Source: a virus
Lineage: Duplodnaviria; Heunggongvirae; Uroviricota; Caudoviricetes
IMG/VR virus record: IMGVR_UViG_2675903336_000010
Reading direction: 5' to 3' (one strand)
DNA length: 9,381 bases
The notes beneath the pieces are model-generated. The model searched no databases. It was not told the origin of the DNA and worked only from the letters and a program-made list of their open reading frames with translations. Both the position numbers and the translations under genes were made by a program. This document shows positions 236-8,812 of this stretch, piece by piece; within the stretch, counting starts at the first letter, position 1; every line of letters begins with the position of its first letter.

Positions 236-1318
236 TCATTTTCTCTGGCTGATCTTTACCGGATAACCATCCCGAAGATCAATTAAGTGCTCCGGTTCAG
301 AAGCAAACCATGCATAAGATCCCCACGCCAATTCTGGTATTGCCTTTTTAAAAGGCAGAGCACTTCTGTCCATAAATGCCGTAAGGAATGCAAGATTTTT
401 CTCGCTGAACCCAGCGTCAATAGCCAAATGAGTGAGAGTAACTTTTCGTTCCCTGTTTATAGGCCCATCTGTCGCAACTACTTCAGTGAAAACTACAAGC
501 ATGTCCGAACCCGTTCGGTCCTCTCCCAAATCAATCAAAATAATATCTGGAAGTGCTTTTGAGGCATCAATATTCAGCCCCAATGCTTTTGCCAATACAT
601 CATCCTGAGCAACAACTTTATTCCCGGATTCAGACAACCAGAGCACAGTTGGATTCTTAAGAAAATTAGGAGCAAAAACTTCGATGACGGCCTTAGCTAT
701 TGTACTTGACGGGCCCGGAGCTAAAGTTCTCTTCTCTCCATTTGGGAAAGTGACGACTACGGCATCAGCAGCAATCACTGCCCCTGATTTCAATAAACGC
801 AACCTAGCAAGAGCGGCTTTGTTCAAATGATTTTCTTGCCAGGAACTTATTGCACTCAGCAGCGAATCTCCTTCAAGCCCGGCATCAAAGAGTGCTGCAA
901 AAGAGCGATTCAAACTGTAACGAGGACGAGAGGATGTGGTGGGTATACCTTTACGCTCAACAATTGCATTGCAAGGTATTAGGCCATTTTTTATAGTTTC
1001 ATCACGTATTGGCTCACGCGTATTTTCCGCATACCATGCATCAGCAGGCCTTATCTTTTGTTTAGAGAAAGTCATCTTTACCCAGCTTTCTCTGGACGCA
1101 TCATCAGTAAGAGCAGCCTGCGAATCTCCCATACTTACAACCTGGCTGGGCCTTATCCATCGCCCCAGCCCCTCAACCGCACCAGCATAAAACATGACAA
1201 AAATTGTTTTTGCAGCTATTTCCCGAATTAAATATCCACGATTCTCAGTCCCTTCAGGGAAAATTAATTGTAATCTTTCCCGGATAACATTCAATGGGGG
1301 AACAACAGGCAGATTCAT
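236..1318 (-). CDS. Putative type II restriction endonuclease (partner of the adjacent methyltransferase); family not assignable by eye, possibly BsuBI/PstI-like
   Basis: 360-aa ORF whose ATG overlaps the methyltransferase stop by 4 bp (ATGA at 1315-1318), implying translational coupling. C-terminal half has a PD...E-x-x-K-like arrangement (LPDIILIDL ... VVFTEVVATDGPINRERK). Region is AT-rich like the methyltransferase gene. No sequence search possible. Confidence 0.5.
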   Translation of the reverse strand: MNLPVVPPLNVIRERLQLIFPEGTENRGYLIREIAAKTIFVMFYAGAVEGLGRWIRPSQVVSMGDSQAALTDDASRESWVKMTFSKQKIRPADAWYAENTREPIRDETIKNGLIPCNAIVERKGIPTTSSRPRYSLNRSFAALFDAGLEGDSLLSAISSWQENHLNKAALARLRLLKSGAVIAADAVVVTFPNGEKRTLAPGPSSTIAKAVIEVFAPNFLKNPTVLWLSESGNKVVAQDDVLAKALGLNIDASKALPDIILIDLGEDRTGSDMLVVFTEVVATDGPINRERKVTLTHLAIDAGFSEKNLAFLTAFMDRSALPFKKAIPELAWGSYAWFASEPEHLIDLRDGYPVKISQRK

Positions 1319-3147
1319 GCAATCATCACTCCATAGAAACCAGCGATAGTTCTCTCAATAATCCGTCTGTGGACGCCAGCATCAATTAACGATTGAATCT
1401 CCATCACCTGCTCCAGAGAAGGCAACGGGATTGAATTCAATTCATAGGCCGAAACAGCAACACTTCCGCTTATACACCTGAACGCCCGATCGACAACATG
1501 CGAATTAAGTAGCATATCAATAACATCAGGGCGAACCGCAGAGAACAATCCGTTTGAATATACAATATTAATATGGTTTTCAACTACTACGCCACCAGTT
1601 TCATCTATAAATCCCTGAGGTAAAATTGCCGCTAAAATCCTTCTGTCCTGTTCCTTCGATGTTGTCCGCTGAACAAGCACACATTCAGATTTTGTCACAA
1701 GGAAACCCTGTTGTGGGGTTATATCGATATAGGGAACATGATTTTTTCTGTCTGCACTAAAACGAAAACCAGCTGAAGTTATTGATTCCGCCCAGACTAA
1801 TGGGTAGCTATTTTTTCCTTTCGTCGTACGCAACTGCGACTTAAATCGATTCCAGACTAACTGACCTGTAGAGACTGAGTATCCCAGATCAGCTAAACGC
1901 GTAGACATCTGTTTTAATACATTAAGAAAACAGGCATCATCTTTAACGCGTGGCAAAAGCCACGTTGCTCCACCTTTTTCTATATCAACATTACCTATTT
2001 TCTCAATTTTTGCTTTGTTCAACCCCTTAGGGACAAGTGAGGATACCTGGGCCCGAACTTTATGTTCTCCCGCCTTGAATGCTGTCAACATTGTTTCCTG
2101 GAGAACATCGTCAAAGACCCCATCCCTGTCAGTGACGAAATCAAGGGCATACGGAGTAGTTTTTTCGGTCAAAAGGGTTCGCAGCGCGGTGAAATACTGC
2201 CCACCAAGAAAAGAAGTTGGCGTAAGAAATGCAATAACTCCTGTTTTCTCTTTAACCATGCGAACAGCTAAGTCGGTGAACAATCCATATAGATTTGCAT
2301 GACCAAATAACGAACGAGAATATTTTTCTCTCGTTTTAATATCGAGAGTGACACGTCCGTAAGGCGGATTCCCTACCACAAGATCATAACCAGAAAATTT
2401 ATCTTGCTGAAGCGCATCAGCAACAATAATTGTATCTTCAGGCAATCTACGTTTTACCTTTACACATAGTGGCATTAGTACAGATTCGAGCAATACCAAA
2501 CTCATCCAAGCCGCAAATGGATCGATCTCTATCCCCTTTAAACGACGACTGATTCTCCTCAACATCCATTCAGGGGAAGACCCCTTGTCTTTTTTTAACA
2601 TTCGAATGGCTACTGGTGCCAAAAATGCACCGCCACCACACGCAGGATCAATAACCGATGCATGAGAAAAATCAACACCAGACTTTTCAGCCAGGTCCAA
2701 GAGACGCGCTACCAAAGGTGGGGGGGTATAGTAAGCCCCCAATTCCGAACGGTAAGCGGATGGCAGCATTACCGTATAAATTGACCCAATCAGATATCCA
2801 GCGTCCTCCGCCGGAAATTGAGCAATAAGCTCACCTGTTCGTTCAGCGAGCTCGCGTGCATCACATGGAATGTCTTCTATGTAAACAGTGTGCGGTACTG
2901 CCCTCATTTTAATGCTGCTTTTTTGCTTTTTTGCAAGGGTATCCCAATATGCAGCTACGATGCTGAAGCAGTATGAGCGGGCATGCATCAACCTTGACTG
3001 CCCGGTTTTGTAATTGCCCGCATAACCTTTGGCCATGGCTTTACAAGTTTGATATCTTTCCAGATTAGAAAACTCATTATCTGTAAAAAAATCAAAATGT
3101 TGCACATTCATAATGTAAAATCCTAATGTATCAAACATGCGGGCCAT
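1315..3147 (-). CDS. N6-adenine DNA methyltransferase, gamma class (motif order X-I-IV), with a long C-terminal putative target-recognition region
   Basis: 610-aa ORF. Motif X GAYYTPPPLVARLL (aa 137-150), motif I VIDPACGGGAFL (aa 165-176, verified at nt 2620-2649) and motif IV VVGNPPYG (aa 257-264, NPPY verified at nt 2359-2370). About 340 aa follow motif IV. Sampled 60-nt lines are about 30-45% GC versus about 57% in the phage core. Confidence 0.85.
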   Translation of the reverse strand: MARMFDTLGFYIMNVQHFDFFTDNEFSNLERYQTCKAMAKGYAGNYKTGQSRLMHARSYCFSIVAAYWDTLAKKQKSSIKMRAVPHTVYIEDIPCDARELAERTGELIAQFPAEDAGYLIGSIYTVMLPSAYRSELGAYYTPPPLVARLLDLAEKSGVDFSHASVIDPACGGGAFLAPVAIRMLKKDKGSSPEWMLRRISRRLKGIEIDPFAAWMSLVLLESVLMPLCVKVKRRLPEDTIIVADALQQDKFSGYDLVVGNPPYGRVTLDIKTREKYSRSLFGHANLYGLFTDLAVRMVKEKTGVIAFLTPTSFLGGQYFTALRTLLTEKTTPYALDFVTDRDGVFDDVLQETMLTAFKAGEHKVRAQVSSLVPKGLNKAKIEKIGNVDIEKGGATWLLPRVKDDACFLNVLKQMSTRLADLGYSVSTGQLVWNRFKSQLRTTKGKNSYPLVWAESITSAGFRFSADRKNHVPYIDITPQQGFLVTKSECVLVQRTTSKEQDRRILAAILPQGFIDETGGVVVENHINIVYSNGLFSAVRPDVIDMLLNSHVVDRAFRCISGSVAVSAYELNSIPLPSLEQVMEIQSLIDAGVHRRIIERTIAGFYGVMIA

Positions 3148-5445: not shown

Positions 5446-5705
5446 NNNNNNNNNNNNNNNNNNNNNNNNNNNNNNNNNNNNNNNNNNNNNNNNNNNNNNN
5501 NNNNNNNNNNNNNNNNNNNNNNNNNNNNNNNNNNNNNNNNNNNNNNNNNNNNNNNNNNNNNNNNNNNNNNNNNNNNNNNNNNNNNNNNNNNNNNNNNNNN
5601 NNNNNNNNNNNNNNNNNNNNNNNNNNNNNNNNNNNNNNNNNNNNNNNNNNNNNNNNNNNNNNNNNNNNNNNNNNNNNNNNNNNNNNNNNNNNNNNNNNNN
5701 NNNNN
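5446..5705. other. Assembly gap (260 N)
   Basis: Uninterrupted run of n from 5446 to 5705; true length and content unknown. Confidence 1.
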
Positions 5706-6578: not shown

Positions 6579-7004
6579 TCAATGTACTGCCACAGCATTT
6601 CCTGCCGGGCCACCACGGTTCATCTGATTGAAACCGGCGATTGCCACTGCGACAAAATCATCAGCGTCTCTCACCAGTCGTTCATGCGTCTCCACCAGTT
6701 CCCGAAAATAAGCTGAACTGTGGCTGCGCATTCGAGCCACCAGCGGAGGTGGCATTGCCCTTTCGATCGCAGGTAACAACGCCTGAATTTTTTCAACAGC
6801 GTCAGGGGTGTCTTTATCCAGCCAACGGAAAATCTTTTGGGTGTTGAGATAAAGCGTGTTGTGCTTGCTGTCGTTATGCAGAACCGGAAACGTCATTCCC
6901 AGTTCGAAATAAACCCTGGTTATTTCAGCTGCCGGAACTTTTTCACCGTCCGGATGCGCCCAGGCTTTCATCGCCATGCGGATGTGTTCATGCTTGATTT
7001 TCAT
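6579..7004 (-). CDS. ydaT: YdaT-like protein (Rac-type functional analog of lambda CII)
   Basis: 141-aa ORF starting MKIKHEHI..., which I recall as the N-terminus of Rac prophage YdaT. Its ATG overlaps the upstream cro-like stop (ATGA at 7001-7004). Confidence 0.65.
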   Translation of the reverse strand: MKIKHEHIRMAMKAWAHPDGEKVPAAEITRVYFELGMTFPVLHNDSKHNTLYLNTQKIFRWLDKDTPDAVEKIQALLPAIERAMPPPLVARMRSHSSAYFRELVETHERLVRDADDFVAVAIAGFNQMNRGGPAGNAVAVH

Positions 7005-7264
7005 GAATCAACCCCCGCCGATGGTTGTGTGTTAGCCTGAAACTCAGCAGGCAAGCCGTCAGTTGGGTTGGGGTAGGTTTTACTGTCAATCTCATGTGGG
7101 GTCACCACCCATCCCGTTGCTTCACACCAACGTAATATTTTTTCTCCTGTAAGTTTTGCACGCCCCGTTATAACGTGGCTGACCATCCCTTGGGATGCGC
7201 CAACAATCTCAGCAAATGAACTCTGGGTTATATGAAAATGATGCAAATATTCTCCAAGATTCAT
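7001..7264 (-). CDS. Cro-like HTH regulator (YdaS-like, XRE family)
   Basis: ORF track start 7291 is TTG; in-frame ATG at 7264 (MNLGEYLHHFHITQSSFAEIVGASQGMVSHVITGRAKLTGEKILRWCEATGW...) has an AGGG SD upstream. HTH signature SQGMVSHVITG. Divergent from the repressor across an operator-containing intergenic region. Confidence 0.7.
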   Translation of the reverse strand: MNLGEYLHHFHITQSSFAEIVGASQGMVSHVITGRAKLTGEKILRWCEATGWVVTPHEIDSKTYPNPTDGLPAEFQANTQPSAGVDS

Positions 7265-7298
7265 AATCCGCCCTATGTGATGTGTTACCAATGCATAA

Positions 7299-7341
7299 TT
7301 AATAGCACTGTTATTTTTAAAAGTAAATAGTGATACTATTT
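7299..7341. promoter_or_regulatory. OR-like operator/promoter region: two dyad-symmetric sites (A 7301-7315 AATAGCACTGTTATT; B 7325-7341 AAATAGTGATACTATTT) with a candidate rightward promoter on the minus strand
   Basis: Site B is a perfect 7+3+7 inverted repeat and site A is near-perfect (12 of 14 paired positions); centres 25 bp apart. On the minus strand TTTACT -17 bp- TATTAA overlaps the sites upstream of the cro-like ATG. Confidence 0.55.
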
Positions 7342-7375
7342 CAAAGTGATTAGCAATCTTATTAGAATTGGATGT

Positions 7376-7876
7376 ATGAAAAGAAAATCATTGTCAGACA
7401 CCGACCTCAACGCCGCCAGAAGACTGAAAGAAATCTGGATGGCAAAGAAATCTCAGTTGGGATTGACTCAGGAACGTGCGGCGGAAATTATGGGGTTTTC
7501 AACACAAGGGGCGGTAAGTCACTACCTAAATGGTCAAACCCCACTAAACCTTGAGGCTGTTCTAAAGTTTGCTGGCTTACTGAAAGTTCCCCCTGAGTCA
7601 ATCAGGCCAGACATGGTAGATTTGCTGCAAATTGCAAGGATGTATTGTCGAGAACCACAGCAAGATAACATAGTCGCATTACCAGCAGACACAGAACAAA
7701 CAGAGGATGAACTACCGTTTGCCGTAGAGCCGATGGAACGAGATTTAATCCATACGTTCAGAGCTTTTCCGAAAGAAGATCAAGAACACATGCTTCAGGA
7801 GATGAAAGATAAAAAAGAATCAATGGATCGTACGGTTGCGCGGTGGTTAGCTGCACAAAAAGGCCGTCGCGCCTAA
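7376..7876 (+). CDS. Prophage repressor, RacR/PaaR-like XRE-family HTH protein with no LexA-like peptidase domain
   Basis: ORF track start 7346 is GTG; first ATG at 7376 (MKRKSLSDTDLNAARRLKEIWMAKKSQLGLTQERAAEIMGFSTQGAVSHYLNG...). Classic cI/XRE HTH (LTQERAAEIMGFSTQGAVSHYLNG). Divergent from the cro-like gene. C-terminal half lacks any G-x-S-M/Ser-Lys autocleavage signature. Confidence 0.75.
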   Translation: MKRKSLSDTDLNAARRLKEIWMAKKSQLGLTQERAAEIMGFSTQGAVSHYLNGQTPLNLEAVLKFAGLLKVPPESIRPDMVDLLQIARMYCREPQQDNIVALPADTEQTEDELPFAVEPMERDLIHTFRAFPKEDQEHMLQEMKDKKESMDRTVARWLAAQKGRRA

Positions 7877-7895
7877 ATCAGAGGAGATATGTAAA

Positions 7896-8090
7896 ATGAG
7901 TACAGTCCTTTCCCCAATGGTTTCAGAATTTGAGACAGTTGAGCAAGAAAATAGTTACAACGAATGGCTGCGGGCCAAAGTAGCAGCAAGCCTCGCGGAT
8001 CCCCGCCCGGCGATTCCGCATGATGAGGTAATGGCGGAAATGGAACAAATTATTGCCCAAATTGCTGCTGCAACTCACAGAGGTGAATAA
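7896..8090 (+). CDS. Small acidic antitoxin of a ParE-family type II toxin-antitoxin pair (PaaA2/ParD-like)
   Basis: 64-aa ORF with GAGGAG SD 9 nt upstream of the ATG. Stop overlaps the toxin start (TAATG at 8088-8092). Sits 19 nt downstream of the repressor stop. Confidence 0.65.
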   Translation: MSTVLSPMVSEFETVEQENSYNEWLRAKVAASLADPRPAIPHDEVMAEMEQIIAQIAAATHRGE

Positions 8091-8380
8091 TGTTACCCGT
8101 TTTATGGCTACCATCTGCTCGTGATGATTTGCGCCAGATCGTAGCCTACATAGCTAAAGAAAATCCCGCGGCAGCACGCAGAATGAAAATTCGAATTGAA
8201 ACATCCGTTTTGCCGCTCACAGAGCATCCTTACCTGTATCCTCCAAGCGAGCGAGTTCTTGGTCTTCGTGAAATTGTAACTCATCCTAACTACATCATCC
8301 TTTACCGAGTAACAGCATCAAGCATAGAAGTAGTAAATATTGTGCATTCTCGAAGACAGTATCCAGGCAAAAACAGTTAA
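8090..8380 (+). CDS. parE: ParE/RelE-superfamily toxin
   Basis: 96-aa ORF with the typical ParE pattern: MLPVLWLPSARDDLRQIVAYIAKENPAAARRM...GLREIVTHPNYIILYRVTASSIEVVNIVHSRRQYP. Translationally coupled to the upstream antitoxin. Confidence 0.8.
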   Translation: MLPVLWLPSARDDLRQIVAYIAKENPAAARRMKIRIETSVLPLTEHPYLYPPSERVLGLREIVTHPNYIILYRVTASSIEVVNIVHSRRQYPGKNS

Positions 8381-8396
8381 TTATTCCCGCCGACAG

Positions 8397-8419
8397 AACC
8401 ACCTTAGGGTGGTTTTTTC
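8397..8419 (+). terminator. Rho-independent terminator closing the repressor-antitoxin-toxin transcription unit
   Basis: 7-bp perfect stem AACCACC (8397-8403) / GGTGGTT (8408-8414), 4-nt loop TTAG, then a T-run to 8418; 17 nt after the toxin stop. The other strand has no trailing T-run, so it is unidirectional. Confidence 0.8.
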
Positions 8420-8436
8420 TTGCCCCAACAAAAAAC

Positions 8437-8480
8437 AATAGCGATGCTATTTACATCAAAAAAAATAATGATGCTATTGT
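8437..8480. promoter_or_regulatory. OL-like operator pair (D 8437-8451 AATAGCGATGCTATT; E 8464-8478 AATAATGATGCTATT) with a candidate plus-strand promoter
   Basis: Site D is a perfect 6+3+6 inverted repeat and site E a degenerate copy; centres 27 bp apart. Same AATAG-N5-CTATT consensus as the OR-like sites. TTTACA (8450-8455) and TATTGT (8475-8480) overlap the sites, though the 19-bp spacer is suboptimal. Confidence 0.5.
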
Positions 8481-8659
8481 TTCAGGCGTCAACCCACCCC
8501 GCCCCACAGAATGCAGGGCAATACTTCGAGTTACCAGACAGTGGTCAGGGGTTAAGTAGCCAGCCCGAGGCGTAAGAACATGACGGCAGGGTTCAATCTT
8601 TAACTATGCAGCAGGTTTTTTGTTCCGCCACCCCGGCGTTAAGGGGAAATGAGGTCAGC

Positions 8660-8812
8660 ATGGATACTATCGATCTTGGCAACAACGAATCTCTGGTGTG
8701 CGGCGTGTTCCCTAACCAGGATGGAACGTTTACCGCCATGACGTATACCAAAAGCAAAACGTTTAAAACCGAATCTGGCGCGCGTTGCTGGTTAGCCAGA
8801 AACACTGACTGA
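8660..8812 (+). CDS. Small hypothetical protein (50 aa), first gene of the leftward early transcript
   Basis: ATG at 8660 (MDTIDLGNNESLVCGVFPNQDGTFTAMTYTKSKTFKTESGARCWLARNTD) with GAGG SD 5 nt upstream. The longer track ORF from 8606 lacks an SD. Confidence 0.45.
   Translation: MDTIDLGNNESLVCGVFPNQDGTFTAMTYTKSKTFKTESGARCWLARNTD

Follow-up and report, generated by a model that had tools for sequence, protein, structure and literature searches.

A PaaA-ParE toxin-antitoxin pair in the probable immunity region of a lambdoid prophage whose repressor has a lambda-CI-like N-terminal domain

Is a toxin-antitoxin pair that lies directly behind a prophage repressor, between two clusters of operator-like dyads, an independent passenger, or does it belong to the circuit that governs lysogeny? 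The question is raised by a stretch of 9,381 nucleotides (nt) of Caudoviricetes DNA (IMG/VR record IMGVR_UViG_2675903336_000010; the whole stretch is referred to below as the window), in which a repressor gene is followed by genes for a PaaA-family antitoxin and a ParE-family toxin. A three-component system of this kind, paaR2-paaA2-parE2, was reportedly also treated by Hallez in 2010. The copy in the cryptic prophage CP-933P of Escherichia coli O157:H7 has been studied by Jurenas et al. (2021, PMC8630535), where the three genes form one operon that is downregulated by PaaR2. Our analysis indicates that positions 6579-8812 of the window are very probably the immunity region of a lambdoid prophage of the Qin/Rac/CP-933 type, carrying paaA-parE as cargo in the rexA-rexB position, and that they hold a functional version of the published circuit whose immunity specificity differs.

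The genes at the center of this question, with positions counted in the window, are the following:

7376-7876, plus strand: repressor in the cI position, 166 amino acids (aa) from ATG 7376; Pfam HTH_3, expectation value (E) 8.3e-9
7877-7895, plus strand: spacer of 19 nt, ATCAGAGGAGATATGTAAA, with a Shine-Dalgarno sequence (AGAGGAG) for the antitoxin
7896-8090, plus strand: PaaA-family antitoxin, 64 aa; Pfam PaaA2 (PF21217), E 3e-23
8090-8380, plus strand: ParE-family toxin, 96 aa; Pfam ParE_toxin (PF05016), E 1.8e-17, over 89 of 89 profile positions
8395-8421, plus strand: intrinsic terminator, a hairpin (8395-8416) followed by a T-run to 8421

The antitoxin/ParE-toxin pair that the original prediction had read behind the repressor is borne out by these strongly positive profile matches and by further ones, of the antitoxin to NCBIfam NF050103 (E 3.3e-27) and to the PaaA2 structure (PDB 3zbe, E 1.4e-23) and of the toxin to the ParE2 structure (PDB 5cw7, E 6.7e-37). 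Profile searches found no helix-turn-helix (HTH), ribbon-helix-helix, or other DNA-binding match in the 64-aa antitoxin. The antitoxin stop codon (TAA, 8088-8090) overlaps the toxin start codon (ATG, 8090-8092) as TAATG, with GAGG 6 nt upstream. The terminator hairpin folds at -15.1 kcal/mol (z = -3.1), a value equaled in 2 of 200 shuffles; a consensus terminator scan missed it, probably because the T-run partly pairs into the stem, and folding confirmed it. Comparison loci (L-numbers) were drawn from complete E. coli genomes, and the window was searched by BLAST against nine relatives; a hairpin with a T-run stands at the equivalent position in other immunity-region relatives (L003, L042, and L043). 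The GC content over the pair is unremarkable, and composition thus gives no sign of a recent foreign origin. The original prediction had placed the genes, the 19-nt gap, the translational coupling, the terminator, and the dyads correctly. Gene identities, spacing, dyads, terminator, YdaT site, and conservation are the features established here directly.

The repressor and the pair had also been proposed to form a single transcript, and this proposal gains support, as the 19-nt gap holds only the ribosome-binding site, a consensus promoter scan found no promoter-like site in or near the gap or anywhere from 7492 through the toxin-antitoxin genes, and the CP-933P homologue is an operon. By analogy with that homologue, repressor, antitoxin, and toxin are likely cotranscribed. 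The alternative is that the pair is autonomous, with a promoter of its own lying within the repressor gene's 3' end and expression independent of the switch, its position being incidental. We consider this very improbable. Outside the enterobacteria, PaaA-ParE pairs do occur mostly as two-gene units without a conserved upstream HTH gene, and hence can do without a regulator of the PaaR type, the CP-933P pair is transcribed appreciably in both states of the switch (PMC8630535), and there is one promoter-like site within the operon, at 7463-7491 in the 5' half of the repressor gene. However, that site lies within chance expectation (3 found by the scan, 2.9 expected), PaaA has no DNA-binding domain and hence would have no means of autoregulation, every E. 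coli locus examined has inherited the repressor tail, paaA, and parE together as a single conserved block, and the homologous genes are reported as an operon downregulated by PaaR2 (PMC8630535).

If the pair is governed by the repressor, operators for the latter should be found on both sides of the block. The right-operator (OR)-like dyads at 7301-7341 and the left-operator (OL)-like dyads at 8437-8478 of the original prediction were examined by scanning both strands with the pattern AATAGCNNTGCTATT, allowing up to three mismatches, against 200 shuffles. The scan gave 11 strand-hits against 2.9 expected, a count that none of the 200 shuffles reached, and 10 of the 11 fall within two intergenic regions. 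The 15-bp consensus AATAGCnnTGCTATT flanks the block on both sides, at 7301-7340 and 8437-8478. In L003 (O104:H4), whose repressor is 78% identical and whose DNA is ~81% identical over the region, the outer half-sites of the dyads are conserved while the central bases differ, which is the behavior expected of real operators. The dyads and the candidate rightward (PR), leftward (PL), and repressor-maintenance (PRM) promoters associated with them are as follows:

7301-7315, no strand assigned: OR1-like operator dyad, AATAGCACTGTTATT; kept in L001 and L003
7326-7340, no strand assigned: OR2-like operator dyad, AATAGTGATACTATT; abuts the PRM -35; in L003 the half-sites are kept and the center varies
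7349-7363, no strand assigned: weaker OR3-like dyad, ATTAGCAATCTTATT; putative role
8437-8451, no strand assigned: OL-like operator dyad, AATAGCGATGCTATT, a perfect consensus; overlaps the candidate PL -35
8464-8478, no strand assigned: OL-like operator dyad, AATAATGATGCTATT; overlaps the candidate PL -10
7299-7327, minus strand: candidate PR, TTTACT-17-TATTAA; -10 overlaps the first dyad and -35 the second
7340-7368, plus strand: candidate PRM, TTCAAA-17-TAGAAT, from the promoter scan
8450-8480, plus strand: candidate PL, TTTACA-19-TATTGT; would drive ydfA and the genes downstream

The layout is that of an immunity region: the repressor and Cro genes diverge around the intergenic dyads at 7301, 7326, and 7349, which overlap the PR and PRM candidates, and a second cluster with the same half-sites (8437 and 8464) lies at the candidate PL, whose geometry the candidate PR matches. 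The OR3-like dyad sits between the -35 and -10 of PRM, its center 23 bp from that of OR2. The PRM -10 ends 7 nt before ATG 7376, where a good ribosome-binding site is absent, and the repressor mRNA is probably leaderless, as judged from this spacing. A -10-like hexamer stands 6 nt before an in-frame ATG in relatives of three other immunity types (B, C, and D, described below; sequences read by eye), which supports the leaderless PRM assignment. The original prediction had not included the weak third dyad, the leaderless geometry of PRM, or the exact YdaT match (6994-7011, below).

The repressor itself appears to be a composite. Its N-terminal 80 aa are homologous to the N-terminal domain of lambda CI (E 2.9e-9), which is also its nearest relative among 50,697 phage records (31% identity), a collection that holds no close relative. 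Over its last ~45 aa, the protein matches DicA in the C-terminal part of the latter (NCBIfam, E 7e-8; BLASTP, 29% identity, E 2e-6), its similarity to PaaR2 does not extend beyond the final 44 aa (52% identity, E 4e-15), and its similarity to the repressor of L002 is limited to the C-terminal 64 aa (56% identity, E 6e-23), so that homology to the PaaR1/PaaR2 regulators covers the C-terminal 44-64 aa only. The description of the protein as RacR/PaaR-like thus holds in its PaaR half for the tail alone, the N-terminal domain being lambda-CI-like, and kinship with RacR was rejected (BLASTP against K-12 RacR, E 29, no detectable similarity). Judged by its sequence, the protein is a CI analogue that is CI-homologous in its N-terminal domain only. 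A Pfam profile search found no Peptidase_S24 domain in the 166 aa; without a LexA-type autocleavage domain, the switch would not be driven by RecA-mediated repressor cleavage. PaaR2 of CP-933P likewise is not responsive to mitomycin C (PMC8630535). The mechanical open reading frame (ORF) begins at GTG 7346, upstream of the ATG at 7376 adopted here.

How closely, then, does the locus follow the published circuit? In CP-933P, PaaR2, YdaS, and YdaT are analogues of CI, Cro, and CII, respectively (PMC8630535). PaaR2, in the cI position, acts on OR- and OL-like operators to repress PR and PL; footprints of both PaaR2 and YdaS lie on repeated operators that separate the divergent genes, and both proteins repress a PL analogue with matching operators that lies beyond the pair; YdaT activates an analogue of the repressor-establishment promoter (PRE); and leaderless translation of paaR2 was demonstrated with 5' RACE and N-terminal sequencing (PMC8630535). 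The region is bistable although the prophage is cryptic, and the locus stabilizes an unstable plasmid (PMC8630535). What can be regarded as established for that prophage (PMC8630535) are the operon, regulation of the CI/Cro/CII kind, translation of a leaderless mRNA, repression of PL, bistability, and the stabilization of a plasmid. In the description of Prolic-Kalinsek et al. (2023, PMC9986795), paaA2-parE2 takes the place of rexA/rexB and PaaR2 that of CI. The suggested match to the paaR-paaA-parE arrangement of O157:H7 is upheld, with the same gene order and with PaaA- and ParE-family proteins. What fails is the contrast drawn with it, that only here would the regulator sit in the cI position, as PaaR2 itself sits there (PMC8630535, PMC9986795). 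The accompanying suggestion that one protein may control both lysogeny and toxin expression holds as an idea but not as a novelty, since Jurenas et al. (2021, PMC8630535) had already reached and published this conclusion.

The window and CP-933P have in common the order and orientation of the genes, with ydaT-ydaS (cro) on one side and the divergent repressor-paaA-parE-terminator-OL/PL-ydfA on the other, a PaaA without a DNA-binding domain, a ParE toxin, a cI-position repressor without a peptidase domain, the ~45-aa C-terminal part of that repressor, the leaderless PRM geometry, operator repeats at both OR and OL, and the YdaT site at the ydaS/ydaT junction. They differ in the N-terminal domain of the repressor, which is unrelated (24% overall identity) and lambda-CI-like here, in Cro (25% identity), and in the operators, which are 18-bp GTTTAGTAA palindromes in CP-933P and 15-bp AATAGCnnTGCTATT dyads in the window, with four OR and three OL sites in the former and two to three OR and two OL sites in the latter. 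Identity to ParE2 and PaaA2 is ~65% for toxin and antitoxin. A further O157:H7 copy, the second (L002), presumably paaR1-paaA1-parE1 of CP-933M, has the same architecture and a homologous repressor tail and belongs to the closest toxin-antitoxin allele group (antitoxin 77% and toxin 82% identical, closer than PaaA2/ParE2), whereas its repressor N-terminal domain, Cro, and operators (AAAAACTGT...ACAGTTTTT) differ.

The divergent side of the switch and the segment beyond OL complete the comparison:

7004-7264, minus strand: Cro/YdaS-like HTH regulator, 87 aa from ATG 7264; weak HTH_3 match; PHROG 35 (transcriptional repressor), E 8e-17
6579-7004, minus strand: ydaT, second gene of the PR operon; Pfam YdaT_toxin, E 5.1e-9
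6994-7011, no strand assigned: predicted YdaT-binding inverted repeat, an exact TTGATT-N6-AATCAA at the cro/ydaT junction
8660-8812, plus strand: ydfA-like DUF1391 gene, first gene of the PL operon; Pfam DUF1391, E 3.3e-28

The mechanical ORF of the Cro-like protein extends to 7291; the start used by NCBI in the near-identical L001 gives 87 aa. YdaT matches PHROG 163 (CII-like transcriptional activator, E 3.1e-40) and is 77-87% identical to the YdaT of relatives; by analogy with the CP-933P homologue, for which the role has been demonstrated, ydaT is taken to be the functional counterpart of lambda cII. Its predicted site is the sole zero-mismatch match to the YdaT motif in the window, the same 30 nt around it are 96.7% conserved in K-12 Rac, and in CP-933P the TTGATTN6AATCAA repeat at the ydaS/ydaT junction was footprinted with YdaT beside a PRE-like promoter (PMC9986795). 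A CII-type gene thus follows cro, with an exact site positioned for a PRE-like promoter, and the replication genes come after ydaT on the minus strand. The five ORFs for regulators, antitoxin, and toxin are all intact and of full length, and their matches cover full profiles.

On the other side, ydfA follows the toxin-antitoxin pair in all relatives and dicA in K-12 Qin. The PL leader between OL and ydfA (8490-8655) is 92-94% identical across heteroimmune prophages and is also kept in K-12 Rac (85%, from 8474), and this is the probable reason for the partial matches to the wider region in 3,764 of 5,426 complete E. coli genomes. Rfam, searched with the whole window at E up to 0.1, gave no match, and the fold of the leader (8485-8660) is not significant (z = +0.74); its function is perhaps nut-like or regulatory.

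Set against lambda, the region has a homologous repressor N-terminal domain, divergent genes around a multi-operator OR, a second cluster at OL, cargo that is likely cotranscribed with the repressor between the repressor gene and OL, a probably leaderless repressor mRNA, and a CII-type site beyond cro. It differs from lambda in lacking the S24/LexA-type C-terminal domain with its RecA-mediated cleavage, in carrying a toxin-antitoxin pair rather than rexAB, in using the unrelated YdaT as CII analogue, and in its operators, which are unrelated. K-12 Qin (dicA/dicC) has the same ydfA-ydfB-ydfC...dicB genes downstream of PL and the homologous C-terminal part of DicA, and K-12 Rac (racR/ydaS/ydaT) has ydaS-ydaT together with the conserved YdaT-site region and PL leader, but both are without a toxin-antitoxin pair between repressor and OL; in Qin, dicA is directly followed by the operator/promoter region and ydfA, and RacR bears no detectable similarity to the repressor described here. 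Classical two-gene parDE systems (RK2; Vibrio cholerae parDE2) have in common with the pair the ParE fold, the small antitoxin encoded immediately upstream, and the neutralizing and addictive behavior predicted for the pair. The difference is one of control, since ParD binds DNA and autoregulates whereas PaaA cannot, leaving regulation to a separate repressor.

The position of the pair raises the possibility that its main role is superinfection exclusion or abortive infection, as a counterpart of rexAB, rather than addiction. Many toxin-antitoxin systems defend against phages, the pair lies where rexAB does, between cI and OL, rexAB too being cotranscribed with the repressor in the lysogen, and expression from a lysogenic promoter would suit a prophage-encoded defense. 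The absence of ParE2 activation under steady-state conditions in CP-933P fits such a role as well (PMC8630535). Nevertheless, repressor, antitoxin, and toxin each went unmatched in a search of the PADLOC defense models, and the sole activity demonstrated for the homologue is post-segregational killing with plasmid stabilization (PMC8630535). We regard exclusion as an unlikely main role, and, as it concerns what the pair does rather than how it is controlled, it is compatible with the same operon mechanism.

Whether the dyads belong to the repressor was also examined by comparison among prophages. A related toxin-antitoxin pair is present in 842 of the 5,426 complete E. coli genomes, with 1,248 places found in all, and every E. 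coli locus examined in detail occupies this prophage position. The same immunity type occurs in 72 genomes; two carry a near-exact allele (98.2% over 1.7 kb), whose antitoxin and toxin are both 100% identical and whose repressor differs in one residue, and the allele is already present, generically annotated, in RefSeq genomes. The gene order ydaT-cro/divergent repressor-paaA-parE-ydfA-...-dicB recurs in several strains, O157:H7, O104:H4, and O111 among them. The O111 locus (L004) is of the PaaR2 type, its repressor beginning MQKKE and its repeats reading GTTTAGT, and its antitoxin agrees with the PDB PaaA2 chain across the aligned region; the window is 24% identical to it in the repressor, 25% in Cro, 66% in the antitoxin, 65% in the toxin, and 77% in YdaT, whereas antitoxin (77-83%) and toxin (82-88%) are closer to the counterparts in L002 and L003. 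Aligned with these relatives, the region resolves into a mosaic:

6579 to ~7015-7111: ydaT; conserved across immunity types
from there up to 7749-7811: cro, OR, and repressor N-terminal domain; variable
7749-8364: repressor tail, paaA, and parE; conserved
8365-8489: terminator and OL/PL; variable
8490-8803: PL leader and ydfA; conserved

At least four immunity types have the central block (7749-8364) in common, each with its own operator repeat:

type A (this window): AATAGCnnTGCTATT
type B: AAAAACTGT...ACAGTTTTT
type C (PaaR2): GTTTAGTAA
type D: ACACTTTTAAAGT

All four types have matching repeats at OL and OR, and these vary in step with the N-terminal domain of the repressor and with Cro, the latter being 75% identical within type A and 25-27% identical to the Cro of other types. 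Such covariation of OR and OL, on either side of a conserved block of 0.6 kb, provides independent evidence for the dyads being repressor operators.

In every E. coli locus examined, repressor tail, paaA, and parE are inherited as one block. A retained block whose flanks are swapped in coordination is the pattern predicted by the addiction hypothesis of Jurenas et al., under which recombinants that lose the pair are killed. It is conceivable, though we lean against it, that 7749-8364 is a selfish core that survives swaps of immunity. One locus looks like a recombination intermediate between immunity types: in E. coli 06-00048 (L045, 814-2126), tandem repressors precede the pair, one PaaR2-like (123 aa) and one type-D-like (131 aa), and both have the conserved C-terminal tail. 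Within the block, DNA homology to the type C PaaA2/ParE2 allele is lost from ~8030/8110 to 8210 and kept on both sides. The lost segment encodes PaaA from about residue 45 to its C-terminus as well as the N-terminal ~40 residues of ParE, and the protein alignments agree; these parts may form a covarying specificity interface that defines two toxin-antitoxin allele groups without cross-reaction.

The pair has also been found outside these E. coli genomes. Among the 50,697 phage records, the sole PaaA gene belongs to Escherichia phage Evi (LR597642.1; L048, 3194-3472), which carries a PaaR2-type module; the ORF after the antitoxin, unannotated in the record, is a full-length ParE2-type toxin with a sequence identical to that of L004. 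Outside the enterobacteria (L007-L041, from Bartonella, Acetobacteraceae, and sphingomonads, as well as plasmids of Pseudomonas and Acinetobacter), PaaA2-family antitoxins with an adjacent ParE are widespread as two-gene units in unrelated contexts, several of which adjoin plasmid replication genes; when genomes were scanned at species level with the antitoxin, neither an enterobacterial representative nor a conserved third gene turned up. The absence of the pair from Qin and Rac and its occurrence elsewhere as two-gene units fit the published view that it was inserted into a lambdoid immunity region.

The rarity of the module in phages, with one PaaA-bearing record among 50,697, could be taken to suggest that the locus is a decaying remnant of a cryptic prophage, its switch and pair non-functional and its dyads relics. 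Homologous systems do reside in cryptic prophages, the closest relative has a frameshifted integrase, and the 19-nt spacer of PL in the window would be consistent with decay. We nonetheless hold this to be the least credible of the alternatives and remote at best, as all five ORFs are intact with full-profile matches, the operator half-sites, terminator, and YdaT site are conserved at ~81% overall DNA identity, phage Evi carries a PaaR2-type module, and even the region of the cryptic CP-933P is still a working bistable switch (PMC8630535).

By analogy with CP-933P, we infer every regulatory and toxic activity at this locus, and the immunity circuit that we favor would operate as follows. The 166-aa repressor would bind the 15-bp dyads as a CI analogue, and its occupancy of OR1 and OR2 (7301-7340) would occlude PR and keep cro/ydaS, ydaT, and the replication genes off. 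With OR2 abutting the -35 of PRM and the weak OR3-like site lying within PRM, positive and then negative autoregulation would be expected, as in lambda. Binding of the two OL dyads (8437-8478) would occlude PL and thus ydfA and the genes downstream, and the short C-terminal tail, as in PaaR2 and DicA, probably mediates higher-order oligomerization and OL-OR looping over ~1.1 kb. During maintenance, the repressor-paaA-parE transcript would start, leaderless, from PRM and end at the terminator (8395-8421), whereas during establishment a YdaT-activated PRE near 6994-7011 could start it. PaaA, having no DNA-binding domain, would only neutralize ParE, so that transcription of the pair would be governed wholly by the phage switch. 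As PaaA is expected to be protease-labile, loss of the region would free ParE, with DNA damage, the SOS response, and growth arrest as consequences, and would make the immunity region addictive.

Several observations weigh against this scheme. The PR and PL assignments are weak matches read by eye, the consensus promoter scan having reported only PRM among the PR, PRM, and PL candidates, and the third OR dyad is a 3-mismatch match only, on both strands. The candidate PL has a spacer of 19 nt, compared with 17 nt in L001 and L003. ParE2 activity was undetected in either state of the CP-933P switch (PMC8630535). Finally, a locus from which the pair has been lost implies that simultaneous loss of toxin and antitoxin is tolerated and that addiction is not absolute.

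The two loci behind these last points deserve a fuller description. The 19-nt spacer stems from a run of eight A residues at 8458-8465 (8456-8474 of the window), where the near-identical L001 has six, and the two extra residues shift the center-to-center distance of the OL dyads from 25 to 27 bp; the run is either a mutation that weakens PL or a homopolymer assembly error. The locus without the pair, in E. coli CAU16175 (L046, 2150-2270), is of type B. A single internal deletion there fuses approximately codon 22 of paaA to the last ~57 nt of parE, with the terminator and OL intact.

Elsewhere in the window, a complete type II restriction-modification pair occupies 236-3147 on the minus strand as cargo downstream of the replication genes. 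Its endonuclease (236-1318; Pfam E 9e-45 and 1e-30) is of the BsuBI/PstI family and its methyltransferase (1315-3147) of the Eco57I/N6 type, and the two genes overlap by 4 bp. In L001, the closest relative, approximately this position is taken by other cargo, which includes a second ParD/ParE pair. An assembly gap of 260 N (5446-5705) falls at the junction between an O-like replication gene and a DnaC/IstB-like helper gene, leaving both ORFs incomplete.

Taken as a whole, the locus is a heteroimmune variant of the known PaaR-PaaA-ParE prophage immunity module and offers little that is new in kind, as both the architecture and the governing of a toxin-antitoxin pair by the repressor were published between 2010 and 2023. 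What differs from the CP-933P system is the immunity type, with its lambda-CI-like N-terminal domain and different operators. The combination of such a domain with a short PaaR2/DicA-type tail provides a convenient system for studying how these tails replace the oligomerization and looping of CI. The inheritance of the block across immunity specificities also bears on the published, untested proposal that the pair protects immunity regions from recombinational replacement. If the repressor tail, paaA, and parE do constitute a selfish core, this would support the published addiction and anti-recombination hypothesis, and the pair would shape the recombination of lambdoid immunity regions by confining crossovers to two places, the repressor linker and the stretch from the pair to OL.

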